A stretch of DNA of 64,000 bases, taken from contig OZ251222.1 of NCBI GenBank assembly GCA_965240325.2, positions 5,022,001 through 5,086,000 of the forward strand, read 5' to 3'. A program made the position numbers and the translations under genes. A model generated the notes under the pieces. That model saw nothing but the letters and a program-made list of their open reading frames with translations. It was not told the origin of the DNA and ran no database searches. Of the stretch, positions 8,068 to 64,000 are shown in pieces (within the stretch, counting starts at the first letter, position 1; the number at the start of each line of letters is the position of its first letter). The stretch is from Rebecca billardiae RCC1528 (taxonomy: Eukaryota; Protista; Haptophyta).

Positions 8068-8434
8068 CGATTTTTTGGGAGATGCGTCCGCCACCGCCGA
8101 TGAGAACAACGGTCGACGAAAATCCGAGACCGAAGAGTAAGACCGCGGACGTCCGCGGTTGTGCTCAAGGCAGGTGTCAGTGACGCCACGGTCAGTGACA
8201 GCGCCGCCGCAGATGTATAGTAGACATGCAGTTCAGACCTGTCTGCGCGCACGCCGCACGCGCCCGGCTGCGCGCCACTGACGACGTCCGCTCCTAGTCC
8301 TGTCAGAGCCTGCGTGCGGTGCCGTCATATGTTGGCACCATTCAGACCATTTATGACTCGGTCGAGAGACAGACAATCACTGGCAGCAATAATAACTATA
8401 GAGAATATCATTATATAAAAATAAGCAGACGGTC

Positions 8435-9490
8435 TGTCACGTGAAGAAACTGGGACTTCCTATCTGCGGATCTGGCCAAGAAACTGAGACTACGAGCCCC
8501 TGCTGACTGCCGCTGCCGGGCCGCCTGCGTCGGCGCCCTGGCGGCCGGCCCGCAGCCGCTCGGGCTGCGCGCGGTGCGGAGCGCGCCTAGCCTGGACTCC
8601 TAGGCACGTCATCAGCGCGCGCTGTTCTCGACCCGACTGGCGACTCTGGCTACAGGCAATTGCGGGCACGCAATAAGGAGCTGTCACGTTAAGAAACTGG
8701 GGCTTGCTATCTGCGGATCTGGCCTAGAAACTGAGACTAGCGATTGGCTGGTTCGCTATACGCATAGTCACACTAAGAAACCGGGACTACGTCGTCGCGG
8801 CTGACGAGTGGTCCGCCGAGGCACAGTCGGCCAGTGGGACGCGGCGCGCGGCCCGACTACGAGTACAGGCCGCCACGCGTCCCGACTTCTCCTGATGATG
8901 ACTGACTCCTGGCCAGTGCACCGCAGCATCCATGCGACATCATGCCAGATTTGCTCCAAAATGATGGCCCGCCATTTTTTTCTTCGGCCTCGCCGGCCGG
9001 GCCTAAAGACTCAGCGGGGGCTCTGCCCCCCTGCGCCCCCCGCGCCTGCGCGGCGGGCGGACCTAGCTAAGAAACTGAGACTCCGTAGGGGCTCGGGCTA
9101 CCGCCGCGGCTAAGAAACCGAGACTAGCAGTGAGATCTCTGACTTCTTATTGCCAGCGATTGCCTGTATAGTGCGCCGGCACCATGCAAAAGCATGCCAG
9201 ATTTGCTCCAAAATGGCCCAAAAGTTTCTCCGGCCTCGCCGGCCGGGCCTAAAGGTCTACTCAGCAGGGGGCTCTGCCCCCCTGCACCTGCGCGGCGGGC
9301 GGACCTACTTATACGGGAAATGAGACTCCGCCGCCTAGGCGCTAGGGCTACCGAACTGCTAACTGCTAAGACGAAACCGAGACTAGCCGTTGGATCTCTG
9401 ACGAATTCTTACGCCAGCAGTTTTATATATCCCATGGCCCAAATCCAGCCAAAGAGTAGGCCCAAAACAAACCTTCGCCTTGGGCCTGTG
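8435..9490 (+). repeat. Internally repetitive transposon-like non-coding block A (recurrent AAGAAACTGAGACT motif, GGGGGCTCTGCCCCC hairpins)
   Basis: The motif recurs about nine times; ~8910-9130 is duplicated at ~9170-9390; a diverged direct copy lies at 18165-18972. Confidence 0.75.
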
Positions 9491-10084
9491 AGGCTCTGGT
9501 TGAGGGCTCCGCTGCGTTTTTTGTCGGGCCTGGGCCGCAACCCGCGAACAATTCACGCTTTTTTTCGCGATGCCCGCGGTTCTGCCTTCCCATTGGTCGG
9601 TCGATGGATCATCTCAACTTCTCCCGGGACAAAGTGAGACATATTATCTCAATAGCATCTTTATGAATCTTTGGAATCAAAGTTGAAAGAGCCAATCGTC
9701 ATCCCGAAAGGCACGATGATGCCGATTCGGCCTAGCTGCAATCTTGTTAGCATCTCGGCCACTGTTCGCTGGATTTGTGCGGGTTTCTCAGCGGTCGAAG
9801 GGGTCTCAAGCAAAGTTGAAGGCTTGCGGGAGCGGAAAACTAGGAGACCGCGGCGAAGTGGCGACAGCTTGCGAAGGGCGTCCACGATGGGCCATACGGC
9901 TTACTGTGCAAGGCAACTCGTGCGGGATCGGGCGCGTACGGCGACGTTTGCATGGTCGTCAATGCGCAGGGTGGGCGGCCTGCGGTGAAACTCACACGAC
10001 GCCCGACCGCTGGCAACCACACCGCCGTCAGGCCGAGCTTGGCCGCACCCCGCGTGCGGCGTGGACCGGCCGCCGAGTGGCTTG

Positions 10085-10275: not shown

Positions 10276-12015
10276 TGTGGAGGCGTCCACGGCGTACCCG
10301 TATTGATTGGGACAGGCGATGCGCGAGGACAGCTGAGGGCAAGCCAGCCCGCGCGGTCCGAGCGTGCGCAGCGCGCGCCGCTGGGCTTGCGTGGCGGCAA
10401 CAGGCTCCGTTGTGCGGCAGACGGTCGAGTCCGGGGCGCACACGTGCTGACGCAGTCGCCTACGCAACTGGCTTCGGCTGCCGTGCCTTCGCGGTCGTGC
10501 ACCAAGCCTGCGTCGCCGCGCGCCGACGCGCCGCCGGCGCGGCGGAGTGCGGGACGCGGTGCCGCCGCCAGTCAGTCGTCCGGCTGACGAGTCCGCGTCG
10601 TTCAGTCACACACGGACGACGGCTGCCGCGTAATGACCGGGCTGGCCCGCGGCCGCCCACCCAGCCAGTCCCAGGGTGTCCGGAGTCGTGACCGTTGGCA
10701 ACGGTCACGACAGTGCTCAGGCCTCCTCCGAGAAGTTCGGCGCGTCGGGCTCGATCGTCATGCCGGCTGTCATGCCGCGCGCGCTAAATATTATCGTCGT
10801 CGATCGATTAATAATCTAAACGGGCGCCGTCGCCATTGCAAACTTATTCAAAACTTAAACTACGTCCGTACCGTCGGCTAGTACCGCTCAGATACTGCTC
10901 CAGCAGTCAGACTGTCAGTCCGACGGTCACTCCGGGACCGCCGGACTCAGACTCAGTGCGTGACTTGTACTCTCCGGACCGGCACGGATGACCGCACGGT
11001 CCGACAGACGAGTCGGATCGACGGAGACAGGAGAGCCAGACTGAGACACGCGTCAGTTCGATAACGTGAGACAGTCATAGCACCGTACTCCGTAGTAGCC
11101 GACGAGGGCTCGGACAGTCGGACTCGACGTGTCAGTCCGTCAGACCGTCCGCCGTACGCGTCAGTGACGAGACAGCGGCGCCAGTCGGTCGCCAGTCGAG
11201 TCACTGACGTCGAGTGCGGCACCGGGGCGGGAGCCGGAGCCGCTGTCCGAGTGGCACGCGGGTCCGAGCAGTTACACCGTGACGCCCGGCCTAAGTCGGT
11301 CCGCGCAAGACAGAAGTCGTGAGAAGACGCCGGCGGATCTGATCTGACTTACTGAGACTGAGCAGATGGCATCATATTCATATATAGCAGCATGCTGATC
11401 ATATAATTATTATAAGTATATACCAGGTGGCCGCACGCCCTGCCTGAACCGGCAGCCGCGCTTTAGGGAAACACCATCCGGGGGGCCGCCTTTCACTTAA
11501 GGACACGCGGGTGGGTGATTACTGAACACGTGAACCATGTCCTTTTCGGACATACGCACACGCAAGATCTTGGGTACGCAGTCATACTATCTGAATCCTG
11601 AGCGCCCACAAGCCCTCTTGGGTCCATGATAGTCTGCCTCGTCAGCGAGCGTCCAAAAGCGAATCCGACGAAAGTTTTTGATTGAAAGCGAGCGCTTTCT
11701 CCAGACGAGACGGATTCCATTCTGGTCCGCTCGTTCCGAACCAAAAGGTCATGGATGCCGTTCCACGGCGCGCGCGCTGTTGGGGCGGGCGGCGAAGCGG
11801 TTTTGTCGGTGGGGTACGGTACAGTCTGTGGCGGGCCGGCGGTGGGTGAGCTACCTATGCAGTTTAGTTGCGCACGCTCGCTCGACGGCAGACCGGCCAT
11901 AATCATGCAAGTAGCAATAGCATCAAGCTGTATGTGTCCGCCACTCCGCCAAGTCAAGAAGTGCTAGTCCCTACTTAGTTACGCCGGCGGCCGGCGGGCA
12001 CATATCATTCACTAG

Positions 12016-12942
12016 AGACGGCACCCTCGACGCCACTATTGGCCTTCCGTACCCCGCCCGCCGCAAGCCCGCCGCACAATACTCAGCCGCGCTTGGCACT
12101 TCCACGCCGTCATCGGATCGGAGATGAAGACGGACTGCCTGGTCACAGCCTTTGACCTCCCCCTCCAGGGCTGGGGCACGCTGCGAGCGTACCACGAGCC
12201 GATGGGCCCGACGAAGCGTGACCTGGCGAAGTGCATCCACTACTGCCAGAAGGAGGGGCCGTCCAACTTCATCATCAGCGCCAACTGGGCAACCATTCCA
12301 GAGCACGTGTGCGGCGTCGACTGGGCGCGCGCGCTGCACGCAGCACAGTCTGCAGACGAGGCAGCGGACATCTTGCAGTGCGAGCACCCGTCGATCTACT
12401 ACCGCTACGGCCATGCCGTGCTCGCCATGATCCGCCACCGACACGGCAGCGGCGTCACGCCGCGCTTCGCCATGAGCTCGTTTGCGCGACTGCCGCTCGA
12501 CCTCTCTGATGGGATGGCTGTCGTGCTCGCAGGTGGATCCGGCCACGGCAAGACGGAGTTCGGGCTGTCGCACTTCGAGAACCCTCTTCTCGTGTCCGAG
12601 ATGGATGACCTGAAGGATTTGACGGCTCGCAACGACGGTATCGTCTTCGACGACATGGATTTCACGCACATGACGGCCAAGGCCGTGATCAAGATGCTCG
12701 ACCCCAACTACGAGCGATCGGTGCACACGCGCTACACGAATGCCAAGATCCCCGCAGACATGCCACGCGTGTTCACGACAAATCTGGCCATGCAGTACCC
12801 CTACGAGCACATCTTCCCGCCCGGTCGCAACCTCGAGCAGCAGCGTGCGCTCAACCGCCGCTTCAAAGTCGTGACGGTCGATGCCGACCTCTTTGCGGCG
12901 GCTCCCGCCGCCGGCGCGTCAGCGGCTGCCGTGCAGACGTGA
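12016..12942 (+). CDS. rep: CRESS-DNA-virus-like Rep (HUH endonuclease + SF3 helicase), copy 1; N-terminus disrupted or spliced
   Basis: Motif II WHFH (12094-12105, in frame upstream of the ATG at 12124), GRS-like AFDLP..YHEP, motif III YCQKEG (12241), Walker A GGSGHGKT, Walker B IVFDD, motif C FTTN, Arg finger ALNRRF. In-frame TAGs at 11965 and 12013. Confidence 0.92.
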   Translation, partial: RRHPRRHYWPSVPRPPQARRTILSRAWHFHAVIGSEMKTDCLVTAFDLPLQGWGTLRAYHEPMGPTKRDLAKCIHYCQKEGPSNFIISANWATIPEHVCGVDWARALHAAQSADEAADILQCEHPSIYYRYGHAVLAMIRHRHGSGVTPRFAMSSFARLPLDLSDGMAVVLAGGSGHGKTEFGLSHFENPLLVSEMDDLKDLTARNDGIVFDDMDFTHMTAKAVIKMLDPNYERSVHTRYTNAKIPADMPRVFTTNLAMQYPYEHIFPPGRNLEQQRALNRRFKVVTVDADLFAAAPAAGASAAAVQT

Positions 12943-14845
12943 GCCATCAGCAAGCGTGCGTCGGTGCATAGCCGCAAGATGCCCTGCTCAGCCCAGCTGA
13001 GCTGCTCAGACTGGCTTGACCCTCACGCTAGTGCCAGGCGGCCTGGCGGTGAGGCGCCGCGGCAGCGGGCCGCCCTTTCGTCAGCGGACTCAGCTGCGGC
13101 CCCGCCCTCTCTCGAGCGGCTTGCGGCGAGGGCGAGAACAGCGGTGAAACTGAAAACATGGGTTTCCTCGGGCCAATCAGGTTAGCGCAAACACACCGCG
13201 CAGCCTGAATGCGTTGAGAGGAGCTAGTACACCGACCCTGAATAGCCCTATGGACGAACTCGTTTTGCGGATGATGGAGGCCCCCAAGATTCCGCCGATG
13301 ATTCGGCACGATTAGGGAAGAATGCAAGCGTCCAACCGGTACAACATAAGAAGCCGCTGAGAAGTCTAGGCTCAAAAATGACCATAAGCCCCAATCGCGG
13401 GGCGTACGGTTGCGTGTGTTCGACAACTTGACCCTGAAATCAATTGGAGACCGGGTAGAGCGGTCTAAGGCGCGGCCGGCGTCAGACCGCCGACTCACGC
13501 ATATGACTTCTCCACCTGGTAATAGATTAAGCATCAGCCGTACCGCAGCAGTAAGGCTGATGTAGGCCGCCTGCGCGGCCCTGAGCGGGAGCCTGATGCC
13601 AGCTGACTCCTGTCTGAGGCGCGCCCGGCGCTGCCGCGCCCGGCACCCGGCTCCGGCGCGGCCGGTGCAGGTCAGCCGTCACTCGTCAGGGTGTCAGCGG
13701 TCAGGACCGCGTCCGGCGTCCAAAATCTACGAGCAGTCAGACTGTCAGTCCGACGGTCACTCCGGGACCGCCGGACTCAGACTCAGTGCGTGACTTGTAC
13801 TCTCCGGACCGGCACGGATGACCGCACGGTCCGACAGACGAGTCGGATCGACGGAGACAGGAGAGCCAGACTGAGACACGCGTCAGTTCGATAACGTGAG
13901 ACAGTCATAGCACCGTACTCCGTAGTAGCCGACGAGGGCTCGGACAGTCGGACTCGACGTGTCAGTCCGTCAGACCGTCCGCCGTACGCGTCAGTGACGA
14001 GACAGCGGCGCCAGTCGGTCGCCAGTCGAGTCACTGACGTCGAGTGCGGCACCGGGGCGGGAGCCGGAGCCGCTGTCCGAGTGGCACGCGGGTCCGAGCA
14101 GTTACACCGTGACGCCCGGCCTAAGTCGGTCCGCGCAAGACAGAAGTCGTGAGAAGACGCCGGCGGATCTGATCTGACTTACTGAGACTGAGCAGATGGC
14201 ATCATATTCATATATAGCAGCATGCTGATCATATAATTATTATAAGTATATACCAGGTGGCCGCACGCCCTGCCTGAACCGGCAGCCGCGCTTTAGGGAA
14301 ACACCATCCGGGGGGCCGCCTTTCACTTAAGGACACGCGGGTGGGTGATTACTGAACACGTGAACCATGTCCTTTTCGGACATACGCACACGCAAGATCT
14401 TGGGTACGCAGTCATACTATCTGAATCCTGAGCGCCCACAAGCCCTCTTGGGTCCATGATAGTCTGCCTCGTCAGCGAGCGTCCAAAAGCGAATCCGACG
14501 AAAGTTTTTGATTGAAAGCGAGCGCTTTCTCCAGACGAGACGGATTCCATTCTGGTCCGCTCGTTCCGAACCAAAAGGTCATGGATGCCGTTCCACGGCG
14601 CGCGCGCTGTTGGGGCGGGCGGCGAAGCGGTTTTGTCGGTGGGGTACGGTACAGTCTGTGGCGGGCCGGCGGTGGGTGAGCTACCTATGCAGTTTAGTTG
14701 CGCACGCTCGCTCGACGGCAGACCGGCCATAATCATGCAAGTAGCAATAGCATCAAGCTGTATGTGTCCGCCACTCCGCCAAGTCAAGAAGTGCTAGTCC
14801 CTACTTAGTTACGCCGGCGGCCGGCGGGCACATATCATTCACTAG

Positions 14846-15772
14846 AGACGGCACCCTCGACGCCACTATTGGCCTTCCGTACCCCGCCCGCCGCAAGCCC
14901 GCCGCACAATACTCAGCCGCGCTTGGCACTTCCACGCCGTCATCGGATCGGAGATGAAGACGGACTGCCTGGTCACAGCCTTTGACCTCCCCCTCCAGGG
15001 CTGGGGCACGCTGCGAGCGTACCACGAGCCGATGGGCCCGACGAAGCGTGACCTGGCGAAGTGCATCCACTACTGCCAGAAGGAGGGGCCGTCCAACTTC
15101 ATCATCAGCGCCAACTGGGCAACCATTCCAGAGCACGTGTGCGGCGTCGACTGGGCGCGCGCGCTGCACGCAGCACAGTCTGCAGACGAGGCAGCGGACA
15201 TCTTGCAGTGCGAGCACCCGTCGATCTACTACCGCTACGGCCATGCCGTGCTCGCCATGATCCGCCACCGACACGGCAGCGGCGTCACGCCGCGCTTCGC
15301 CATGAGCTCGTTTGCGCGACTGCCGCTCGACCTCTCTGATGGGATGGCTGTCGTGCTCGCAGGTGGATCCGGCCACGGCAAGACGGAGTTCGGGCTGTCG
15401 CACTTCGAGAACCCTCTTCTCGTGTCCGAGATGGATGACCTGAAGGATTTGACGGCTCGCAACGACGGTATCGTCTTCGACGACATGGATTTCACGCACA
15501 TGACGGCCAAGGCCGTGATCAAGATGCTCGACCCCAACTACGAGCGATCGGTGCACACGCGCTACACGAATGCCAAGATCCCCGCAGACATGCCACGCGT
15601 GTTCACGACAAATCTGGCCATGCAGTACCCCTACGAGCACATCTTCCCGCCCGGTCGCAACCTCGAGCAGCAGCGTGCGCTCAACCGCCGCTTCAAAGTC
15701 GTGACGGTCGATGCCGACCTCTTTGCGGCGGCTCCCGCCGCCGGCGCGTCAGCGGCTGCCGTGCAGACGTGA
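14846..15772 (+). CDS. rep: CRESS-DNA-virus-like Rep, copy 2 (same as copy 1)
   Basis: Same translation as copy 1, offset by 2830 bp (ATG at 14954). Confidence 0.92.
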   Translation, partial: RRHPRRHYWPSVPRPPQARRTILSRAWHFHAVIGSEMKTDCLVTAFDLPLQGWGTLRAYHEPMGPTKRDLAKCIHYCQKEGPSNFIISANWATIPEHVCGVDWARALHAAQSADEAADILQCEHPSIYYRYGHAVLAMIRHRHGSGVTPRFAMSSFARLPLDLSDGMAVVLAGGSGHGKTEFGLSHFENPLLVSEMDDLKDLTARNDGIVFDDMDFTHMTAKAVIKMLDPNYERSVHTRYTNAKIPADMPRVFTTNLAMQYPYEHIFPPGRNLEQQRALNRRFKVVTVDADLFAAAPAAGASAAAVQT

Positions 15773-16799
15773 GCCATCAGCAAGCGTGCGTCGGTGCATA
15801 GCCGCAAGATGCCCTGCTCAGCCCAGCTGAGCTGCTCAGACTGGCTTGACCCTCACGCTAGTGCCAGGCGGCCTGGCGGTGAGGCGCCGCGGCAGCGGGC
15901 CGCCCTTTCGTCAGCGGACTCAGCTGCGGCCCCGCCCTCTCTCGAGCGGCTTGCGGCGAGGGCGAGAACAGCGGTGAAACTGAAAACATGGGTTTCCTCG
16001 GGCCAATCAGGTTAGCGCAAACACACCGCGCAGCCTGAATGCGTTGAGAGGAGCTAGTACACCGACCCTGAATAGCCCTATGGACGAACTCGTTTTGCGG
16101 ATGATGGAGGCCCCCAAGATTCCGCCGATGATTCGGCACGATTAGGGAAGAATGCAAGCGTCCAACCGGTACAACATAAGAAGCCGCTGAGAAGTCTAGG
16201 CTCAAAAATGACCATAAGCCCCAATCGCGGGGCGTACGGTTGCGTGTGTTCGACAACTTGACCCTGAAATCAATTGGAGACCGGGTAGAGCGGTCTAAGG
16301 CGCGGCCGGCGTCAGACCGCCGACTCACGCATATGACTTCTCCACCTGGTAATAGATTAAGCATCAGCCGTACCGCAGCAGTAAGGCTGATGTAGGCCGC
16401 CTGCGCGGCCCTGAGCGGGAGCCTGATGCCAGCTGACTCCTGTCTGAGGCGCGCCCGGCGCTGCCGCGCCCGGCACCCGGCTCCGGCGCGGCCGGTGCAG
16501 GTCAGCCGTCACTCGTCAGGGTGTCAGCGGTCAGGACCGCGTCCGGCGTCCAAAATCTACGAGTCTGTCCGCGGTCTCGGCGCCCGGGTCCGGACCTTGA
16601 AGTCACTCAGCTGCGTCCGATGCCGCCATCCACAGAGGTATACAAAGTCCGTCTCCACGATCGTCAGAGTCACGCCGCCTCCTGACTAAGGCCGCCGGGC
16701 GCGCGCGCGTCGCGCCCCGGCCGTGAGGTGATCGTGAAGAACTGCGCGCGCGTACGGCGCGCGCGCGTGCCGCGAGGGCTGAATTGGAATGGAACCCTG

Positions 16800-17620
16800 C
16801 CGTGCCAGGATATGCCCATCGCCCTCTGTCCTCGGGCGTCGCCCGTCCCAATGAATACTGGTACGCAGTGGACACCTCCACCTGCAGGCGTACAAGCGAA
16901 CGGCGGCGGGCGACGAGGGGCACTGTGATGTGCGTGCTGCATCCAGGCAGCGCGCCGGACGCGTACCTGAGCTTCCTGAGAAGCTGGGCCTTGCATCGGG
17001 CTGTGCTGTTCTCGGCGGACGCGCGTCGTGTGAGCTTCACCATAGCCAGCCCACCCTGGGTGTCGACGACCTTGTAAACATCGCCATGCGTGCTCGTCAT
17101 CGTACCGCATAACGGTTCAGCCTCTCCGTAAGCCGCAGATGGGACATCCATCTGCTCGACTCCTCGCTGGGGAGCCTCGGGTCGCGCGCCGAATTCACCG
17201 ACTTGCGCGACCTCAGCAGCCGGCCGAGCGGCGCCCAGCCGCGCATGCTTGCCCCCTCAGCACGGCGCGGCGCGGCGTGCACTCGGGCCAACGGGTGCCG
17301 CACGACATTTAGATAAAGAGCTTCTGCTCCTGCACTCGCAGGTTCCATAGCACGAGCGCGCCCAAGGCGAAGAGGAAGGCGTCGACGGGTGCGGGCAGCG
17401 CGTGTTCGTCGTGCTCCCCCGAGGAGCGCGCCGAGGGCAACGCCACGTGCGCGGCGCCGGCGACGCCGGGCAGCGTGCTCATGGTGTCGTTGAGGAATTC
17501 CGAGATTCCTCTCCCAGACGCGGCGGCGGCGGTGAGGCCGCGCCGCCCTGCTTGGAAGGAGCTCCGACTCCCAAGAGGGCCTTCGGCTGCAAAGCTGATT
17601 CTCTTCCGATCTCCTAGCCG
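16800..17620 (-). repeat. Diverged inverted copy of ~9840-10340 with a different internal insertion
   Basis: The reverse complement of ~16825-16881 (GTGGAGGTGTCCACTGCGTACCAGTATTCATTGGGACGGGCGACGCCCGAGGACAG) matches ~10277-10332, and the reverse complement of ~17000-17150 matches ~9885-10026. Confidence 0.75.
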
Positions 17621-18164
17621 ATCTTCGTTTAGTCTATTGGTCCGACGAAGCACAGAAAATGTTTTTTTGGGGGCCTCGGCGTGCCGATCTCGCACGTTAG
17701 TTTGGCAAGCGGTACAGAAACGCTGCGCTCCCCCCTGCACCACCACCACCACCAGGCCACCACCACTGCTGGGCGTGCCAGGCGGGGCCCTGTCACCTGT
17801 GCCCCCGGACACACTGCTCGCCGTATGAGAAGCTCCTTATAGGCCACTGGCACGCATCGTGTATTTCATTAGAATAAAGCGCAGTCGCCACACGATGATA
17901 AGACTTATATATATATAATTATATGTATATATATAATTATTTATTATATATTAAGAAGCCGATCATCGTCAGTAGAGGCTCTCTGCTGCTAACTCATCTG
18001 CGCCTCCGCCTCTGACGCCGCTGGCGCCTAGCAGCAGCAATCGCGCTAAGCAGACAATCATATCGGGTCATCGAGCGGCGAGTGACTGGAGCACCAAGCC
18101 TGTATTAGTGTATAGGGCCTGACCAACGCCTGCAACGGGTGCGCCTGCATCCTGATGCAACATA

Positions 18165-18972
18165 TTGAGACTAGCAGTTTGCTGGTTCGCTATACGCACA
18201 GTCCCACGGAGAAATCGAGACTATATAAAAGCTACAGTGACATCCAATAATCGCTTACCGGCGGCCGGAGGCGGGCCCAGCCGCTCCGAGGGCGGCGCGC
18301 GCGCGGTGCAGCACGTCGCCTAGCGTGGACTCCAAGTCACGTCATCAGCGCCGGCGCTTCTCAGACCGCACTGGCAGTGCGCCGGCATCATGCGCAGCAT
18401 AAGGATGCTAGCAGATGTGCTTTAGTAGAATTGTGCTGCCAAAAAATTCTTCGGCCTCGCCGGCCTGGCCTAAAGACTGATGACAGCGTCTGAACGTCCG
18501 ACACTCGACAGCGGGGGGCACTGCCCCCCCGCGCCCCCCACGCCTCGGCGCGGCGAGCGGACCTAAATAACTGAGATCGACTCGTCCGTCCGTAGTAGGC
18601 GCGCTCTGGCTACCGATGCACCACCGCGATCTGAAACGGAGTCTACTAGCTAGTCTAAGTCTGTCTCTGAGCAGTCGGAGGATGGGACTTACGACTCTGA
18701 CCGACGACTAGTCGTCAATTCTGCATGATGACGAGTAAAATTGCGCCCGCGCGTCGTGATGGGCTGTGTCTTATCTGCAACTCAGAATATATGCATCATA
18801 TGAACATCATCACTATACGCTGATAGATTGCGCCCGCCTACGATGATTATATATATATATATATCGATATATATTAATGTAGCCTGATTGTAGCTTATTA
18901 TGTATTAAAATAATTGGGCCCGCCACCTGCCCTTATGAAGTAGGCCCATCAAAACAACCTTCGCCTCGGGCC
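18165..18972 (+). repeat. Diverged direct copy of block A
   Basis: Shared strings GCTGGTTCGCTATACGCA, CACGTCATCAGCGC, TTCTTCGGCCTCGCCGGCC..GCCTAAAGACT and AGTAGGCCC..AAAACAA.CCTTCGCCT.GGGCC. Confidence 0.75.
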
Positions 18973-21356: not shown

Positions 21357-22703
21357 TCCTCGCCCGGCGGCTTGCAAACCAAGCCCCCCAAAACCCCTCG
21401 CGCGGCGAAAGGCACCGTCCCTTAGGAGTCGATGCCTTCCGGGAGCTCTTTGAATACAGGTGGATACGGGTGGCCGACCCAACTCACGCGGAGGCCTCTC
21501 TCGGAGCATTGGGGTCGAAGGGGCGCCAGGGACGCGGACTTCAGGGGGTCCCTGGAGTTCCGCCGCAGCGCGCTTTCTGCGCTGCGGGCCCGTCTCCGCG
21601 CGTGGCGGCCGCAATGGCACTGTCCAACTAGCCCCTGGCACTGGCTGAGGCATGGGAATCGAGCTCAGAGACGCGCGCGCGGAGGAAAAGCGTGTGCATC
21701 GGCTCGGACGGTTGCTCTGGGACCTACCCACGCCAGCGCAACCGCGCCTTGCCTCGGAGTCCGCCCTTCCTGAGTCCGCGCACGCGCCTTGCGGCTTGAA
21801 ACGCTGGCGTTCGGCCTTGTGCGCGGGACTCATGAAACAAGGCGAAGGCGGCGAGAAGCGCGACCTGGCGCGTGCGCAGACGACGTTCCACGACCAGGTG
21901 AGTTCAGCAAACATCGTGCGCCGTCGTGGCGACCCGCCAGTGGGCGCTCGTGCTCGTTCGCCCACGAGCCCTCGCCACGAGGCCCGCCGCCCGCTGAGTG
22001 TCCAGTTAGCCCCGGTGTCCAGTTGACCCGTATCCACCTGTACGCGTTTGCGCGTGCGCGGGCACTCCCGGACAGCCGCCGCCAAGAAGGCCAGCTGCGC
22101 GCGCCCTCCTCGGTCGTCCGCCGCGGCGCGTGCGCGTCGAGGCGCATGACGGGCTTTGCCGTGCACGTCGTGCCTGTGCTCGCGGCTCATGCACGTCTCA
22201 CGACCGAGATGCATGTCTTGCGCGCCCTCCTTTGGCTCGCACTGCGGTCTCCTCGTCGACAGCCTTGTGATCACGCGCGCCGCCATTTCAACCGGTTGCT
22301 GGCCTGCCAGCTGTCGAGCGTGCGTGTGCGGTCTGATCGATGTCGGCATGGCTGCCGGCGAAGCAGTGATGTTGAGTACACCCATACCCATCTCGCAGAA
22401 GCGAAAAAGCTGACCTTTGAATGCCCCAGGGGCGCACGCGTGCCCATCACGCTCGTCGGACAGGCCTTCTCCAGAACTGCGCTTGCCATCCGGCAGGTCT
22501 CTGCGCGCGGAGAGGGCGGCGAGGGCGTCGACGAGGCGGCACGATTGCTGCCTACGGGTCTTCTGGCTCCCACAAAGTGCCCGCGCACGGCTGTCACGCC
22601 CGCATGCGGCCTTGGGAGCGCTGCGCAGGCGGGCCCTCGCGTCGCCCAGTGCTCGCCATCCCGTTTTGGGGGGCTTGGTTTGCAAGCCGGGGCGGGCGAG
22701 GAC
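21357..22703. mobile_element. Probable decayed TIR element (~40-bp inverted repeats ~1.3 kb apart)
   Basis: GTCCTCGCCC..CGGCTTGCAAACCAAGCCCCCCAAAAC at 21357-21394 has an inverted copy at 22663-22703. No intact transposase or TSD seen. Confidence 0.5.
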
Positions 22704-28603: not shown

Positions 28604-29731
28604 CAAGGGCGGTAAGGGCTGTCAACTCCCAGTGGCGGCAGCGCCAGAGGTTGGCTCCCGCTTCGCTGCTGCGCGGCCTCGCTCCAGCGACTAACTCTCG
28701 TGGGCGCCCGCCCTGGAGGGCGAGTGGGGCGCGCACGGCGCGAGCTCCTGCGGCCGTGTACGCGCGCGCAGAGGCGGCGCGCGCGGCTGGGCAGGTGCTA
28801 GGGAGTGCATGTCGCCCTCCCACGCCGCGCGCCTTGCTCGCCGCCGCTTTCGCCGCGCCTCAGGCCAGCGCGCACGCGTGCGCCGCCTCCAGAGCCAGCC
28901 TCGGGCCCGCGGCAGCCGGCCGCGCGCGTGTGGTGCGCGGTCTGGTCGGCGCGAGTCGGTCGGGGCCATCGGGCGAGGTTCGCATACTATAGACGCGCGC
29001 TCTGCCGCCGCGCGCCGCCGCGCACGGCTGTCATGGGTCGACACGCAAGCATCTTAGGTCTGACACGAACTGCAGCACGAATGCGAAAATGCTCATGTTT
29101 GGACGCTCATGGAGACGCTGAAGAGCACAACAGACGAGCGCAGGCGATGGAGAGCGGGGCAATGCACTCATTGGACGCCGTACACGCACCCAATGCGGCC
29201 GCCTATCACGCGCATGGGCGCTCACTGTCGCGTGTTCGAGCTCATTTCTGCTTGTCGTGCATTCATCAATCAGCTTCCTTCAACAGCTTCACGGGATGGT
29301 ACCGGGCCCATGCGCGGTGGCGCGCGGCGGCAGAGCGCGCGTCTATAGTATGCGAACCTCGCCCGATGGCCCCGACCGACTCGCGCCGACCAGACCGCGC
29401 ACCACACGCGCGCGGCCGGCTGCCGCGGGCCCGAGGCTGGCTCTGGAGGCGGCGCACGCGTGCGCGCTGGCCTGAGGCGCGGCGAAAGCGGCGGCGAGCA
29501 AGGCGCGCGGCGTGGGAGGGCGACATGCACTCCCTAGCACCTGCCCAGCCGCGCGCGCCGCCTCTGCGCGCGCGTACACGGCCGCAGGAGCTCGCGCCGT
29601 GCGCGCCCCACTCGCCCTCCAGGGCGGGCGCCCACGAGAGTTAGTCGCTGGAGCGAGGCCGCGCAGCAGCGAAGCGGGAGCCAACCTCTGGCGCTGCCGC
29701 CACTGGGAGTTGACAGCCCTTACCGCCCTTG
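28604..29731. mobile_element. Non-autonomous foldback DNA transposon, P-superfamily-like (family 1)
   Basis: 421-bp near-perfect TIRs (28604-29024 / 29311-29731) starting CAAGGG; 7-bp TSD TCACAAC at 28597-28603 and 29732-29738. Confidence 0.92.
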
Positions 29732-30026
29732 TCACAACCATTCCCTGTGGCCTGACTGGGTCGTGGGTGGGTGCACCGTGCACGTGGCGGTCGCGGAGAC
29801 GTGACGAGCGCCGGCGATGTGACGGTCCGGTCACGATTCAGTATGGCTGCCGCATCACTGTAACCGCCCATAACGGTCGCCATCAACCGCGCTCCACATA
29901 GATAGCGCAGAGATTTAGAGTGCCGCGAAAATCGCTTCGCCGACTCGGACGCCGGCTGATGACCGACGGGAGTCGGCCCGACCCCCTCGGCGACCGATTT
30001 TCGGCCGCCGCCCACGCGCGGCGCCG

Positions 30027-31714
30027 ATGGCGGCCGCCGTGAAGCGGACCCACGTGCTGGGCGCGTGCGGCGTGGCGCTCGCGCTCACGATGGTGCTCGC
30101 CGCCATCGCAGGGGTCGCGCCCTACGCCGCCAAGAGCGCGGGCCCCGCCGACAGCCTGCCGACGTCGACCGTGTGGACGACGGCGAAGAAGAACGGCAGC
30201 TGGACCATGTATCGGAACGACGCGCCGTTCGTCGTCAAGGGCGCGTGCTACAGCCCCACGGAGATTGGCGGCGACATCAACTTTGTCGACGCGGACATCG
30301 CCACCACGATGTGGGGCGACTACTTCTGGGACACGACCAAGACCCCGAACGGGGAGCCGCTGTACAACTGGTACGCGCTCTGGGGCTACGGCGAGCTCAG
30401 CCCGCCGTACGTTGCGCGCAACGACCTCAAGACGATGGCGGGCCTCGGGGTCAACTCGATCCGGACCTACTTCATGCAGTCGCGCCTCTACAAGAACGAC
30501 ACGAACGACCAGACGCTGCCGTACACCGAGTGCCCGCTGCGCACGCACACGCAGTTCCTCGACGAGGCGCACCAGAACGGCCTCTCCGTGCTCGTCGGGA
30601 TCGCGCTGCCGGCGAACCTGATGAAGATGGACCTGTACATGGAGTGGAAGGCCGCCCGGCCGTCCAACCTCGACTGGTGGGTCAACGTGATCCGCGAGAC
30701 GGCGGAGCAGGTCGGCTCGCACCCGGCCGTGATGGGCTTCACGATCATGAACGAGCTGGACGACGAGCCCAACGCCTTCCCGTACGAGAACGTGCCCGTC
30801 CCAGCCGGGCAGGGGACGATGCCAAAGGCGCTGCCAGCCGACGCGAAGACCAACTTTTGGTGCGCGCGCGCGCTGCGCCCGCGAAGCCCTCCACCCAACG
30901 CCTTCCCCCCGCTGCTCCAGTGCCATCCGCAGCGCCCTCACTCGCGCGCCTCCCTGCGCGCAAACGCGCGCAACGGCGCAGGTACGCCCGCGCAATCGAG
31001 TACGCCAAGATCGTCAAGAAGGCCGCGCCGATGAAGCTGGTCGGCTGGGCGATCCACGACGCCCCCGTCTTCGTCGCCTGGTCGTCGAAGACCAAGCCCT
31101 TCTCGTCCCCCAACCTGGACCCGCTCCTCAAGCCCGACGAGGTGTACATGCAGCAGCTGTCGGCCGTGTTCGACTTTTACGGCGTCAACTCGTACCAGAC
31201 GCAGAGCCTGGTCACCGTGATGGGGGCCGCCGACATGGTCGGCGACCAGATGTCGTACGCGGACCCGAGCATCGCGGACATCGTCAAGCCCGTGCTCCTC
31301 ACCGAGCTTGGCTGGTCCTCGACCGGCCGCGCGGTGCCGTCCGACCCTTCCTCCGAGCTGATCGACAACGGCAAGACGCAGCAGAACGTGGCGGACGTGA
31401 TCGCGCGCGTCATGCCGGGCGCGTACACCACGTACCGCAGCATCTCCGTCGGCGCGTTCTGGTTCGAGTTCGCCGACGAGTGGTTCAAGCAAGGGCTCCC
31501 GACCGTGTGGAACGGCGCGGACCACACGAGCCCTGGCTTCCCCAACGGCTACTGGGACGAGGAGAGCTTTGGCATCTTTGCGCGCCGGCGCGCCGGCGGC
31601 CGTTCGAACAGCTCCAACGACTGGGCTGGCTCGGGGCCGACGCTGCCGGTGGACCAGCTCTTGCCCCGCATGCCCATCGTGAACGCGCTCAAGGAGATCT
31701 TCCGCTCCAACTAG
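30027..31714 (+). CDS. Clan GH-A glycoside hydrolase (GH2/GH158-like TIM barrel), signal peptide, one intron
   Basis: FVVKGACYSP, GVNSIRTY, acid/base IMNEL, nucleophile VLLTELG, FEFADEW. Intron 30860-30981 restores ..NFW|YARAIEY... Confidence 0.85.
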
Positions 31715-36546: not shown

Positions 36547-37660
36547 CAAGGGGAGTCAGGGTACAGCACGTCCAGTTGGGCTGCAGCTGGAGCTTGGGTA
36601 CAAAAGCTCCCGCGGCGCAGCGGCACTCGCCGCCGCCGCCGCCGTCGAGGGGCGGTTGTGGCGCGCACGGCGTGAGCCGCTGCGGGCGCTGAGGTGCGCG
36701 CGACGGCGGCGCGCCCGGCGGCGCTGCTGTAGGAGGCCACTGCCCTCCTCTCTGCCCCGCGCGCTTCGCTCGTCGTCGCCGTCTCCGCGCCTGCGACTCA
36801 GCGCGCACGCGAGCGCGGCACCGCCCGGCAGCCGGGGCAATCTCTGCCATGACTGCGCATGTGCGTCGCGACCTGGTCGGCCCAGCGCGCGAGGCGCGTG
36901 CGGGCGAGGTAGGGCCAGTATGGGCGCGCGCCATGCCGCCTCAAGTAAGCCCATCAGAGCGTACAACAGGGAACTGAGCACGTGTGTCTGGTTGGCCGCT
37001 TGGACTGTGTTCAAGCAATGCACGGGCCATCGTCGAGGCGATCTCGAGGCACTCAGTCAAAACGTCAGTTCAGCGCGCAGACGACCTGGGCGAGAGTCAC
37101 TGACAATGTATGACTCGCATGATCACAAAAAGCTCTGCAACTATCGCGTCTGTACGCCTACTGCCTCGATCGTGCACACTGACGTCTGCGCTTGGGTGCC
37201 GCATTGTTTGTCAACGTTGTCGACAGAGGTGCAAGGCCCGCGACATGCCCACCGGCGCAAGGTCGAGGCGGCATGGCGCGCGCCCATACTGGCCCTACCT
37301 CGCCCGCACGCGCCTCGCGCGCTGGGCCGACCAGGTCGCGACGCACATGCGCAGTCATGGCAGAGATTGCCCCGGCTGCCGGGCGGTGCCGCGCTCGCGT
37401 GCGCGCTGAGTCGCAGGCGCGGAGACGGCGACGACGAGCGAAGCGCGCGGGGCAGAGAGGAGGGCAGTGGCCTCCTACAGCAGCGCCGCCGGGCGCGCCG
37501 CCGTCGCGCGCACCTCAGCGCCCGCAGCGGCTCACGCCGTGCGCGCCACAACCGCCCCTCGACGGCGGCGGCGGCGGCGAGTGCCGCTGCGCCGCGGGAG
37601 CTTTTGTACCCAAGCTCCAGCTGCAGCCCAACTGGACGTGCTGTACCCTGGCTCCCCTTG
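36547..37660. mobile_element. Non-autonomous foldback DNA transposon, P-superfamily-like (family 2)
   Basis: 396-bp near-perfect TIRs (36547-36942 / 37265-37660) starting CAAGGG; 7-bp TSD GGTGGCC at 36540-36546 and 37661-37667. Confidence 0.92.
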
Positions 37661-59250: not shown

Positions 59251-60924
59251 CACACCCACCAGTGACATCTGTAGCCTAGCGATCAGCCAGCTGTTCGGCG
59301 CGTGCCACGTGGCTGGCGCTGCTGCACCGCGAGCGGCGCGCGGGCTGCGCTGTCACCGCACGGCAGCAGCTGTGGCTGCGACACACCGGTCGAGCCGCGA
59401 CAGGGTGCCTGCTGGCCCATGGCTGCACATGCGCGGATTCGTGCACAGCCACGACACGGTATGGCAGGGCCGCTTGATCTGCTCGCGCGAGAGCCTTTGG
59501 GTGCCAGCTAGCGGGGGCGCCGCACACGCGCCCGCTCGCGCTGCGCAGCAGACGGGTGCAGTGTTGCGAGTGCCGAGGGCTGCGCACGCATCGCACGCGT
59601 TGCTGTGCGCTGCTCGCGGGTGCTCGTGGGTGCTCGCTCAGGCGCGTGGACCGTCAGGCCACCCAGCGGCCGACGCGCCTCGTCCGCTGCCGCGAGCAGC
59701 CCCGCGCTGGCGACTGGCGGTGCCCGTCTGCAGCAGGATGGCGGTGCATCGGACGGCGCGCGCCCGGCGAGTGCCCTCAGCGGCATGCTGCTGGACGGTG
59801 CACGCCAGGGTTGGCCCCCACGCGAATATGAATCGCTCCTGGCAGGCTGGTAGCTTTTAGAGATGGACGACAAACTGCGCCGGGCGGGGCCGCGCTCGGC
59901 ACCTCGGCCGAGAATCACAGCGTGTCGCCTCACTGCATGTCTCTCACATCCGCACTGGAGGCACAGTGCACGGCCGCCCGCGGAGCGCCGCAGACAGCCC
60001 TTAGAGCAGTGCGGCAGGTGTTTAACAAAACTGAGCAGAGAGCGCGGCAGCACGGCGCGCGCGCACGGCGCAAGCAGCACGCGTACTCGCCGGATGCACT
60101 TACCCCCACGTGCGCGTGCACGCCCGCAGTGCGGTCTCACTGAGTGACTAATTTCGCGCCGGAGTGTTAGGCTCCGCGTATACAATGAGCACTACGTAGT
60201 TCGGCTGGCACAGGGCAGGCAGCTCCGCTCACGCCTGACGGGCGGTGATGCCGTGCGCGGCGCGGCGTGGCTGAGATTTCGATCAATGATAGGAGTAGGC
60301 AGCACGCTGATGCTGCGCCACCGCCGCAGCGGCGTGGAACCCCGCGGTATTACCCACACGAGTGTGCATATAAGCACTACATCACGGCCTGCACAGCAGC
60401 AGCGGTAGTGCACCACTCTAGCTGAAGCCGAGTGTGTCACACCGTCTGTCAAGACTGCGCGGCCGCGGCGACGGCTCGCGGTCGGCAGGCGTCGCGTTCG
60501 CGTGTTGCGGCCGCGCGTGAAGCGGGCCGGCGCGCGGCCGGCGCACCGCGGGCTGGCGCGGAGCACACTGTCACACGCAGACGGCCAGTGGCGTGCACGC
60601 GCGCGCGCGCGCTGGCTGCCACGCCGGCCAGGGGCGCCGCGCGCATGTTGCCACGCGCGACGGCCCAGTGGGGGGGGGGGGGGGGGGGGGGGGGGCACTC
60701 GCCCGTCGCGCGCGCGCGCCGCGCGCCGCGGACGGGCGGGCGGCGTGCGCACGCGCGCGCGTGCTCGCAAAACCAGCGTGTGGGCGAGCGGGCGGCTGCT
60801 CTGCTCCAGGCTCGCAGGTGGTGGCAAGAGCGCAATGCCCAGAGCGTGGGCAGCACGACGCCAGGCGTGGTGGCTCCGGCCGTGGTAGGCAGGCGGGCCA
60901 GCGGCCAGCGCTAGCACGCGGCCC

Positions 60925-63900
60925 CGCGGCGCAACTTAGCGACGAGCGATGCATGTAATCCACGATCAGGGTGGGTTGGACGGGTGAGCGCAGCCCGAGC
61001 GGCGGAGGCCTCGCCGCACGCCGGCTGTAGCAGCAGCGTTGCTTCCGCGAGCCGCCTCAGCCTGTCAGAAGCAGCTGACGACCGGCCGGGCCCGCGGCCG
61101 TCGGCTGCGGGCGGCTCGCACGAGCCCAAGCGGCGCAACTTAGCGACGAGCGAGGCATCTAATCCAAGATCGGGGTGGGTTGGACGGGTGAGCGCAGCCT
61201 GAGCGGCGGAGGCCTCGCCGCACGCCGGCTGTAGCAGCAGCGGCGCTTCCGCGAGCCGCCTCAGCCTGTCAAAAGCAGCTGACGACCGGCCGGGCCCGCG
61301 GCCGTCGGCTGGGGGCGGCTCGCACGAGCCCAAGCGGCGCAACTTAGCGACGAGCGATGCATCTAATCCAAGATCGGGGTGGGTTGGACGGGTGAGCGCA
61401 GCCTGAGTGGCGGAGGCCTCGCCCCAGGCCGGCTGTAGCAGCAGCGGCGCTTCCGCGAGCCGCCGGAGTCAGTCAAGGAGCAGCTGACGACCCGCCGGGC
61501 CCGCGGCCGTCGGCTGCGGGCAGCTCGCACGAGCCCAAGCGGCGCAACTTAGCGACAAGCGATGCATCTAATCCAAGATCGGGGTGGGTTGGACGGGTGA
61601 GCGCAGCCTGAGCGGCGGAGGCCTCGCCGCACGCCGGCTGTAGCAGCAGCGGCGCTTCCGCGAGCCGCCTCAGCCTGTCAAAAGCAGCTGACGACCGGCC
61701 GGGCCCGCGGCCGTCGGCTGGGGGCGGCTCGCACGAGCCCAAGCGGCGCAACTTAGCGACGAGCGATGCATCTAATCCAAGATCGGGGTGGGTTGGACGG
61801 GTGAGCGCAGCCTGAGCGGCGGAGGCTTCGCCCCACGCCGGCTGTAGCAGCAGCGGAGCTTCTGAGAGCCGCCTGAGCCTGTCAAAAGCAGCTGACGACC
61901 GGCCGGGCCCGCGGCCGTCGGCTGCGGGCGGCTCGCACGAGCCCAAGCGGCGCAACTTAGCGACGAGCGAGGCATCTAATCCAAGATCGGGGTGGGTTGG
62001 ACCTGTGAGCGCAGCCTGAGCGGCGGAGGCCCCGTCTCAAGCCGGCTGGAGCAGCAGCGGCGCTTCCGCGAGCCGCCTCAGCCTGTCAAAAGCAGCTGAC
62101 GACCGGCCGGGCCCGCGGCCGTCGGCTGCGGGCTGCTGGCACGTGGCGAAGCGGCGGAACTTAGCGACGAGCGATGCATCTAATCCAAGATCGGGGTGGG
62201 TTGGACGGGTGAGCCCAGCCTGAGTGGTGGAGGCCTCGCCCCAGGCTGGCTGTAGCAGCAGCGGCGCTTCCGCGAGCCGCCTGAGCCTGTCAAAAGCAGC
62301 TGACGACCGGCCGGGCCCGCGGCCGTCGGCTGCGGGCAGCTGGCACGAGGCGAAGCGGCGCAACTTAGCGACGAGCGATGCATCTAATCCAAGATCGGGG
62401 TGGGTTGGACGGGTGAGCGCAGCCTGAGTGGCGGAGGCCTCGCCGCACGCCGGCTGGAGCAGCAGCGGCGCTTCCGCGAGCCGCCTGAGCCTGTCAAAAG
62501 CAGCTGACGACCCGCCGGGCCCGCGGCCGTCGGCTGCGGGCGGCTCGCACGAGCCCAAGCGGCGCAACTTAGCGACGAGCGATGCATCTAATCCAAGATC
62601 GGGGTGGGTTGGACAGGTGAGCGAAGCCTGCGTGGCGGAGGCCTCGCCCCAGGCCGGCTGTAGCAGCAGCGGCGCTTCCGCGAGCCGCCTGAGCCTGTCA
62701 AAAGCAGCTGACGACCGGCCGGGCCCGCGGCCGTCGGCTGGGGGCGGCTCGCACGAGGCGAAGCGGCGCAACTTAGCGACGAGCGATGCATCTAATCCAA
62801 GATCGGGGTGGGTTGGACGGGTGAGCGCAGCCTGAGCGGCGGAGGCCTCGCCCCACGCCGGCTGGAGCAGCAGCGGCGCTTCCGCGAGCCGCCTCAGCCT
62901 GTCAAAAGCAGCTGACGACCCGCCGGGCCCGCGGCCGTCGGCTGGGGGCGGCTCGCACGAGGCCAAGCGGCGCAACTTAGCGACGAGCGATGCATCTAAT
63001 CCAAGATCGGGGTGGGTTGGACGGGTGAGCGCAGCCTGAGCGGCGGAGGCCTCGCCCCACGCCGGCTGGAGCAGCAGCGGAGCTTCTGAGAGCCGCCGGA
63101 GTCGGCCAGAAGCCCTTGACGACCGGCCGGGCCCGCGGCCGTCGGCTGCGGGCGGCTCGCACGAGGCGAAGCGGCACAACTTAGCGACGAGCGATGCATC
63201 TAATCCAAGATCGGGGTGGGTTGGACGGGTGAGCGCAGCCTGAGCGGCGGAGGCCTCGCCCCACGCCGGCTGTAGCAGCAGCGGCGCTTCCGCGAGCCGC
63301 CTCAGCCTGTCAAAAGCAGCTGACGACCGGCCGGGCCCGCGGCCGTCGGCTGGGGGCGGCTCGCACGAGGCGAAGCGGCGCAACTTAGCGACGAGCGATG
63401 CATCTAATCCAAGATCGGGGTGGGTTGGACGGGTGAGCGCAGCCTGAGCGGCGGAGGCCTCGCCCCACGCCGGCTGGAGCAGCAGCGGCGCTTCCGCGAG
63501 CCGCCTCAGCCTGTCAAAAGCAGCTGACGACCCGCCGGGCCCGCGGCCGTCGGCTGCGGGCGGCTCGCACGAGCCCAAGCGGCGCAACTTAGCGACGAGC
63601 GATGCATCTAATCCAAGATCGGGGTGGGTTGGACGGGTGAGCGCAGCCTGAGCGGCGGAGGCCCCGTCTCAAGCCGGCTGTAGCAGCAGCGGAGCTTCTG
63701 AGAGCCGCCGGAGTCGGCCAGAAGCCCTTGACGACCGGCCGGGCCCGCGGCCGTCGGCTGCGGGCGGCTCGCACGAGGCGAAGCGGCACAACTTAGCGAC
63801 GAGCGATGCATCTAATCCAAGATCGGGGTGGGTTGGACGGGTGCAGGTGAGCGAAGCCTGCGTGGCGGAGGCCTCGCCCCAGGCCGGCTGTAGCAGCAGC

Positions 63901-64000
63901 AGCGCTTCCGCGAGCCGCCGGAGTCAGTCAAGGAGCAGCTGACGACCCGCCGGGCCCGCGGCCGTCGGCCGCGGGCGGCTCGCACGAGGCGAAGCGGCGC
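60925..64000. repeat. 204-bp tandem satellite, about 15 units, continues past the window end
   Basis: CTTAGCGAC anchor at 60935, 61139, 61343, 61548, 61752 ... 63792. Confidence 0.97.

Follow-up and report, generated by a model that had tools for sequence, protein, structure and literature searches.

A Rep of the type known from single-stranded DNA viruses with circular, Rep-encoding genomes (CRESS viruses), together with a superfamily 3 (SF3) helicase, is listed for viruses and plasmids in the account of the Replitrons, which gives other Rep types for transposons (PMC10288648). A link between single-stranded DNA viruses and transposons has been argued for a geminivirus-like element of Tuber melanosporum, but is shown in that account only with a transposase on board (PMC3198968). 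Transposons with HUH endonucleases that have short terminal inverted repeats (TIRs) and make no target duplication do exist, as described for the Helitron2-like elements (HLE2; PMC11417382). Here we describe, in a 64,000-nucleotide stretch of the haptophyte Rebecca billardiae RCC1528 (contig OZ251222.1, positions 5,022,001 to 5,086,000; hereafter the window), a real, discrete and polymorphic insertion that is bounded by inverted ends and carries a CRESS-type Rep frame as its only gene. Full-text searches of the literature showed no description of such a Rep-plus-SF3-only element with inverted ends, although the supplements of the Replitron and Tuber papers, or Repbase, could list one.

That the segment is a mobile insertion bounded by its ends, as a preliminary description of this DNA had supposed, is borne out by empty-site contigs from two studies (runs X1 and X2), which make the segment around the inverted ends an insertion polymorphism. 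Four runs are listed for the element and part of the segment is present in two of them; in runs X3 and X4 the sole match is an unrelated one of 35 nucleotides (nt). In X1, a 998-nt contig at a depth of 7.1 joins 11410 to 13530 with six letters in between, and extends without any difference through unique DNA as far as 17243. In X2, from the separate study, identical junction letters are seen as the loose ends of two 151-nt contigs. In window coordinates the empty allele comprises the left flank through 11406, 11416-11421, 13524-13527, and 13530 onward. The insert size computed from this is 2,102 bp, in four equivalent registers (11420-13521 to 11423-13524), because 3 junction nt fit either side. 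X1 also carries pieces of the element at a depth of 3-7, including two Rep variants; its cover is absent over approximately 12912-13463 and over the filled junctions.

11422-13523, plus strand: inserted element, copy 1 (2,102 bp; empty-site contigs X1 and X2)
11407-11415, no strand: nine A/T letters of the left flank that the empty allele lacks (X1/X2 contigs against the window)
13528-13529, no strand: two letters (TA) of the right flank that the empty allele lacks (X1/X2 contigs against the window)

An empty-site allele had been proposed as the check on the insertion, and one was found, but its sequence is not the one predicted. In both studies it is 3 nt shorter at the junction than a TA duplication would leave it, and it fits exactly if no duplication took place; it also lacks 11407-11415 on the left flank and 13528-13529 on the right. 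The expectation that removal of the segment would rejoin a single rare AT-rich patch held, the left flank being matched by 0.24% of 30-nt windows and the right by 0.67% of 12-nt windows, and the two being rejoined in the empty allele.

The ends themselves are short and bipartite. The inverted 10-mer TACCAGGTGG stands at both ends and again at +2830, in the second copy of a tandem duplication, and there are no other sites in the 64 kb even when one mismatch is allowed, in agreement with what had been noted beforehand.

11421-11430, plus strand: left inverted arm, TACCAGGTGG, exact match
13512-13521, minus strand: right inverted arm, TACCAGGTGG inverted, exact match
11441-11455, plus strand: left inverted repeat, inner segment, in register with 13487-13501 at 11 of 15 nt
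13487-13501, minus strand: inner part of the right inverted repeat, partner of 11441-11455

Inside the TA, 8 bp match perfectly, 10 bp are unmatched, and the 11/15 match follows, for a total of approximately 35 nt. The preliminary description had cautioned that the 10-mer by itself is weak, and shuffles agree: the duplicated unit holds 12 inverted 10-mer pairs against a shuffle mean of 6.8, the unanchored test is matched by 81 of 100 shuffles, and a TA-anchored inverted pair occurs in 11% of 300 shuffles. Position is more telling. A 10-nt inverted match that near both ends is found in 0.25% of 20,000 random 2,119-nt segments, sampled over a range (7.2-20 kb) that contains the element itself, and a second in-register match of 11/15 nt, lying 10 nt further inward, in 0.2% of 20,000 random pairs. 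The inverted ends are thus beyond chance, and the arms coincide with breakpoints set independently by other samples.

Within the insert, Rep is the only recognisable gene and the capsid gene expected of a CRESS virus is missing. No further ATG-started frame exceeds 147 aa, the side frames have no family matches, and neither a capsid nor a transposase was found in the side frames of this insert or of a related element, L004.

12016-12942, plus strand: CRESS-type Rep frame (HFH motif II at 12097-12105, YCQK motif III near 12241), with a broken N-terminus
11971-11988, plus strand: candidate Rep motif I (LLSYAG), in the Rep reading frame but cut off to either side by stops in that frame; identified only by visual inspection

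The SF3 helicase is complete, with Walker A GGSGHGKT, Walker B VFDDM and motif C FTTN. The window copy therefore retains motifs II and III and the helicase, while motif I lies outside the open frame and the first ATG of the frame, at 12124, falls downstream of motif II. When the N-termini of relatives were searched by tblastn against the candidate motif I stretch, no alignment was returned. A loose end in X1, comprising 30 letters before 12085, translates as KEPHEHPNDP, a signature that the Rep clade carries ahead of motif II; a less damaged Rep is therefore present in the X1 sample.

Two relatives, P0001 and P0002, are 55-57% identical to the window Rep and intact. Both have HUH motifs I-III, one catalytic Tyr and a fused SF3 helicase, the architecture of CRESS-type Reps, and Pfam and Atlas agree with this assignment. 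A sequence search of solved structures gave no significant match; the predicted structure of P0002 (pLDDT 93) best matches the Rep of Vientovirus FB (9pqq), followed by adeno-associated virus Rep68. A profile search returned 2,119 matches. In a quick tree of 88 rows, drawn from the best 150 of these together with further loci (sequences below 230 aa were dropped and L014-L028 left out), a clade of 35 rows (SH-aLRT 96) takes in the window Rep and leaves out all eight virus-type rows. The catalytic motifs, including the single YxxK, are kept across 27 aligned proteins at 30-55% identity, and dN/dS is approximately 0.26 in two within-clade pairs (window versus L004, L005 versus L006), from which we take the clade Rep to be conserved under selection. 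Among the clade proteins listed, 48 of 51 are on contigs of 2.5 kb or less. Protein and pattern scans of viral contigs gave no clade members and 22 distant loci, short exact patterns being able to miss members; on the clade profile none of these loci exceeds 209 bits, whereas L006, although not part of the profile, reaches 402. No clade Rep was found in prokaryote genomes, plasmids or phages, and the clade is apparently undescribed.

A single metagenome scan yielded six loci, four of which belong to the clade (L004-L007); all four are linear with 58-61% GC, as compared with the viral-contig loci, of which 21 of 22 are circular and all have 35-51% GC. The Rep of L004 is 53% identical to that of the window and is the only long frame between inverted repeats, with no other frame above 97 aa and no capsid frame in the element. 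Its inverted repeat spans 32 nt, 84% matched, with TA at both outer ends (equalled in 0 of 100 shuffles), and its left end carries ATACC, as the window element does. Upstream of the L004 Rep there are nine AGGTR motifs against 1.8 expected, for a motif chosen from the window element's ends, as well as two strong internal hairpins (512-546 and 638-700) rich in AGGTG/CACCT, the core of the window ends. L006, which is too short for an inverted-repeat test, agrees with L007 up to CTACCTTAA (L006:1470-1490, L007:630-660), one base before the L006 contig ends and beside a small palindrome; L007 continues into an F-box-like frame that is under the Pfam cut-off. L005 has an inverted 13/15 match to this motif at 470-485, upstream of its Rep (1 in 3,000 shuffles), so that the motif may possibly mark the ends of a second subfamily. 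With the window element counted in, the layout of Rep alone between inverted ends is seen at two loci, and is hinted at in a third group.

L005 also has a very stable hairpin (1039-1119, z -9.2) built of repeated TGCAGTTG units approximately 35 nt before the Rep start, and L006 starts with a similar stretch. These units are candidate Rep-binding iterons.

The preliminary description had offered, as one of two readings, that the ends are a pair of inverted Rep nick sites. As two separate nick-site hairpins this was rejected. Neither end folds: z is +0.43 for one and -0.43 for the other, and -4.58 for a viral origin taken as control. The nonamer-like letters beyond the arms belong to the host and stand in the empty allele as well. 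In addition, the left outer site breaks the -4/+1 pairing rule, and the right one owes its pass solely to the meeting of host TAT with element TAC.

In a changed form the idea of a nick site still holds up: joined together, the arms make one origin-like stem-loop. When the insert is closed end-to-end, it forms an 8-bp stem with the loop TATTA, whose tip reads TGGTATTAC on one strand and TGGTAATAC on the other. The consensus of the CRESS nonamer is NANTATTAC, which the closed junction matches at 8 of 9 positions on the minus strand. Rep substrates are described as needing pairing between positions -4 and +1 (PMC9973303), a rule that the closed junction satisfies on both strands, and T-4 and T-1 are given the most weight in the nonamer (bioRxiv 10.1101/2020.09.01.278671). 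A T^AC cut on the plus strand, the Rep strand, is one of the four allowed registers. The linear insert contains no TATTAC, and sliding a 70-nt window along its non-coding parts gave a best hairpin of z -3.0, near 11701, with none tied to a nonamer. Likewise, an internal nonamer hairpin is found in none of the four clade loci, versus 13 of 24 virus-like loci.

With a confidence that comes close to even without reaching it, we read the element as a capsid-less one moved by its CRESS-type Rep via a circular intermediate, its ends being the two arms of one split origin. At the circle stage, the stem-loop of the closed ends would serve as the origin, an intact Rep from a sister copy would nick it at T^AC, and the SF3 helicase would drive copying. 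Once opened, the circle would be joined to AT-rich host DNA at a T^A step, no target duplication would result, and what look like TIRs would be the two stem arms, now separated to either end. The short A/T additions seen in each flank would be scars left when the integration was repaired. Since its Rep N-terminus is broken, the window copy would be non-autonomous. A broader proposal, which we advance more tentatively, is that such elements may form a third independent group of eukaryotic HUH transposons beside Helitrons and Replitrons: approximately 2 kb long and capsid-less, with Rep plus SF3 as the sole gene, and with origin arms that pass for TIRs with TA duplications. The transposases of such a group would be the 35-member clade, and some miniature inverted-repeat transposable elements (MITEs) that are flanked by TA and have matching ends might be non-autonomous partners.

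A number of observations weigh against movement by Rep through a split origin. The loop has 5 nt; the loops of the 13 viral origins identified in this analysis have 9-14 nt, and 10-13 nt is given for viral origins (bioRxiv 10.1101/2020.09.01.278671). Where a CRESS virus would show a loop of 10-13 nt holding the nonamer and a stem of 9-11 bp, the junction offers 8/9 of a nonamer, an 8-bp stem and the 5-nt loop. Eight of the nine nonamer letters follow from the inverted repeat, leaving the 1-nt spacing as the only extra information. On the minus strand, the canonical cut, TATT^AC, misses the allowed registers by 1 nt, the host target breaks the -4/+1 rule, and its hairpin is not significant (z -0.5, -1.2). 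Any insertion can be read as having made no duplication, and the reading here comes from one site only; two more small indels lie no more than 15 nt from the ends, so that noise could account for the 3-nt offset, or the empty allele could itself be an excision product. The selection seen on Rep could be a legacy of a time when it belonged to a virus. No second insertion junction with its own flanks was seen in the X1 contigs. No end-junction match that would mark a circle was found in viral contigs, nor any circular joint in the X1 and X2 contigs, whose cover stops short of the filled-side ends. The ends of L004 yield no clear nonamer and no empty site is known for it, and an inverted repeat around the L005 Rep is absent from its 2.6 kb (41 of 100 shuffles).

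The other reading put forward in advance, a TA-targeting TIR element with Rep as cargo, would make this a non-autonomous Tc1/mariner-type element, pasted into TA by a DDE transposase from elsewhere, with Rep as its sole gene and either a passenger or a copier of excised circles. We regard this as a serious possibility, though one that falls distinctly below even. TA does adjoin both arms, as it does both outer ends of the TIR-like repeat of L004, and the element ends start CCAGGTG, which is how the 5' inverted terminal repeat of Mos1 starts (PMC3419177) and also counts against the Rep-driven reading; the L004 ends, however, are unrelated to CAGGTG. The bipartite repeat of approximately 35 nt resembles a TIR in which the end is cleaved and a site further in is bound, but its perfect match inside the TA is just 8 bp, against a TIR criterion of approximately 28 bp or more. 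A clean TA duplication is what the empty site fails to show, being 3 nt too short in both studies and accompanied by two extra flank indels; excision followed by joining at a 3-nt ATA overlap would nevertheless yield the same allele. A MITE 8 kb away serves as a control and also speaks for the mariner-type reading.

21455-22042, no strand: MITE of 588 bp; its inverted ends, perfect over 17 nt, start TA-CAGGTGG and are accompanied by sub-terminal repeats (empty site in X1)

It shares CAGGTGG with the element and has an empty site with a single TA, and X1 has another copy of it with a different flank, but the likeness of the ends does not apparently continue past CAGGTGG, and the empty joint depends on a single contig that reaches just 28 nt past it on one side, at 80% stringency. 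A transposase was not found in the element or in the 19 + 6 window frames scanned. Fanzor-only elements, which have TIRs of mariner type together with TA duplications (PMC3627910), are a precedent, as is the Rep-carrying TIR element of Tuber (PMC3198968). The two mechanisms could also be combined, with a transposase cutting in trans and Rep copying the excised circle. Between Rep-driven and mariner-carried movement, we see a slight edge to the former.

We consider it improbable that a CRESS virus or satellite circle became endogenous here on a single occasion, breaking at the hairpin of its origin and being taken up in an AT-rich patch through double-strand-break repair, without later transposition. 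Such a capture would suit the messy A/T additions on both flanks, the junction at an origin-like stem-loop and the broken Rep N-terminus; non-homologous integration of single-stranded DNA viruses is known (PMC3187698), CRESS-type sister Reps sit on circular viral contigs, and the short contigs of most listed clade proteins are compatible with small circles. Set against it are the lack of a capsid frame here and in L004, the linear, GC-rich state of the four clade loci as opposed to the viral ones, the recurrence of the layout at L004 in another sample, and the two Rep variants in X1. It is very improbable indeed that the inverted 10-mer is coincidental and the segment an ordinary insertion/deletion polymorphism. 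An unanchored 10-nt inverted match is expected by chance, but the arms fall on breakpoints that other samples define independently, a second match lies in register with the first, and L004 has the same layout.

The element is present twice in the window, by an exact tandem duplication.

10902-16563, no strand: exact 2,830-bp tandem duplication (units 10902-13733 and 13732-16563, with a 2-nt AG overlap at the borders)
14252-16353, plus strand: element copy 2, identical to copy 1, part of the tandem duplication

The duplicated unit comprises the element with approximately 520 bp of left flank and 210 bp of right flank, and since the segment is repeated exactly, copy 2 is neither an independent insertion nor independent evidence. 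The only contig spanning the edge of the duplication, from X1, lacks it and holds a single, empty copy of the locus; the duplication is therefore specific to the window allele or an assembly artefact, that is, either a recent event or an error of assembly. A 98-nt inverted match (76%) flanks the duplicated region at 9929-10026 and 16999-17096, and decayed dispersed repeats and AT-rich patches, at 8400-9420 and 18160-18600, are common to both sides of this repeat-rich island.

The window as a whole is GC-rich eukaryotic DNA with an intron-bearing gene, ordinary metabolic genes and a 204-bp satellite. The host gene at 29919-31711 has one intron and is weakly glycoside-hydrolase-like (sub-threshold Pfam matches in its relatives), with few homologues at 40-46% identity. 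The satellite occupies 60866-64000 in at least 14 tandem copies. Two foldback elements, at 28604-29731 and 36547-37660, have perfect inverted arms of approximately 400 bp starting from CAAGGG and 7-bp target duplications (TCACAAC and GGTGGCC). From their end motif we take both to be P-element-like.

If the Rep-driven reading is true, an integrated, polymorphic, Rep-only family would be a direct intermediate between single-stranded DNA viruses and transposons, and some annotated TA-flanked TIR elements would be split rolling-circle origins. Under carriage by a mariner transposase, the clade would resemble the Fanzors, its Reps being preserved intact while forming the only gene of TIR elements, and the question of their role would arise.

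Known systems each share part of this layout. CRESS DNA viruses have the same Rep architecture and, once the insert is closed, the same placement of a nonamer at a stem-loop tip; the element differs from them in being capsid-less, integrated, linear and high in GC, with a 5-nt loop and a Rep of a separate clade. Replitrons (Craig 2023, PMC10288648) are likewise eukaryotic DNA elements of algae and protists with one Y1 (single-tyrosine) HUH Rep related to CRESS Reps, but are described there as having no helicase and short direct terminal repeats, as opposed to a fused SF3 helicase and inverted ends. HLE2 (PMC11417382) resemble the window element as HUH elements with short terminal inverted repeats and, if the window insertion indeed made none, in the lack of a target duplication; according to that source they have a Y2 (two-tyrosine) RepHel with a superfamily 1B helicase, insertion at T^T and a 3' stem-loop, whereas here a Y1 Rep with SF3 is found at a TA-type site. 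Fanzor-only mariner elements such as PUl-4 (Bao and Jurka 2013, PMC3627910) also place a single non-transposase gene between TA-flanked inverted ends. As reported in that paper, however, their TIRs match confirmed mariner families and they have TA duplications, whereas the window element has no known partner transposase and an unclean TA duplication. The precedent that comes closest is a transposon of geminivirus-like type from Tuber melanosporum (Liu et al. 2011, PMC3198968), in which a CRESS-like Rep lies between 37-bp TIRs with, as described, no obvious target duplication; that element also has two transposase open reading frames, whereas the window element and L004 have Rep only.

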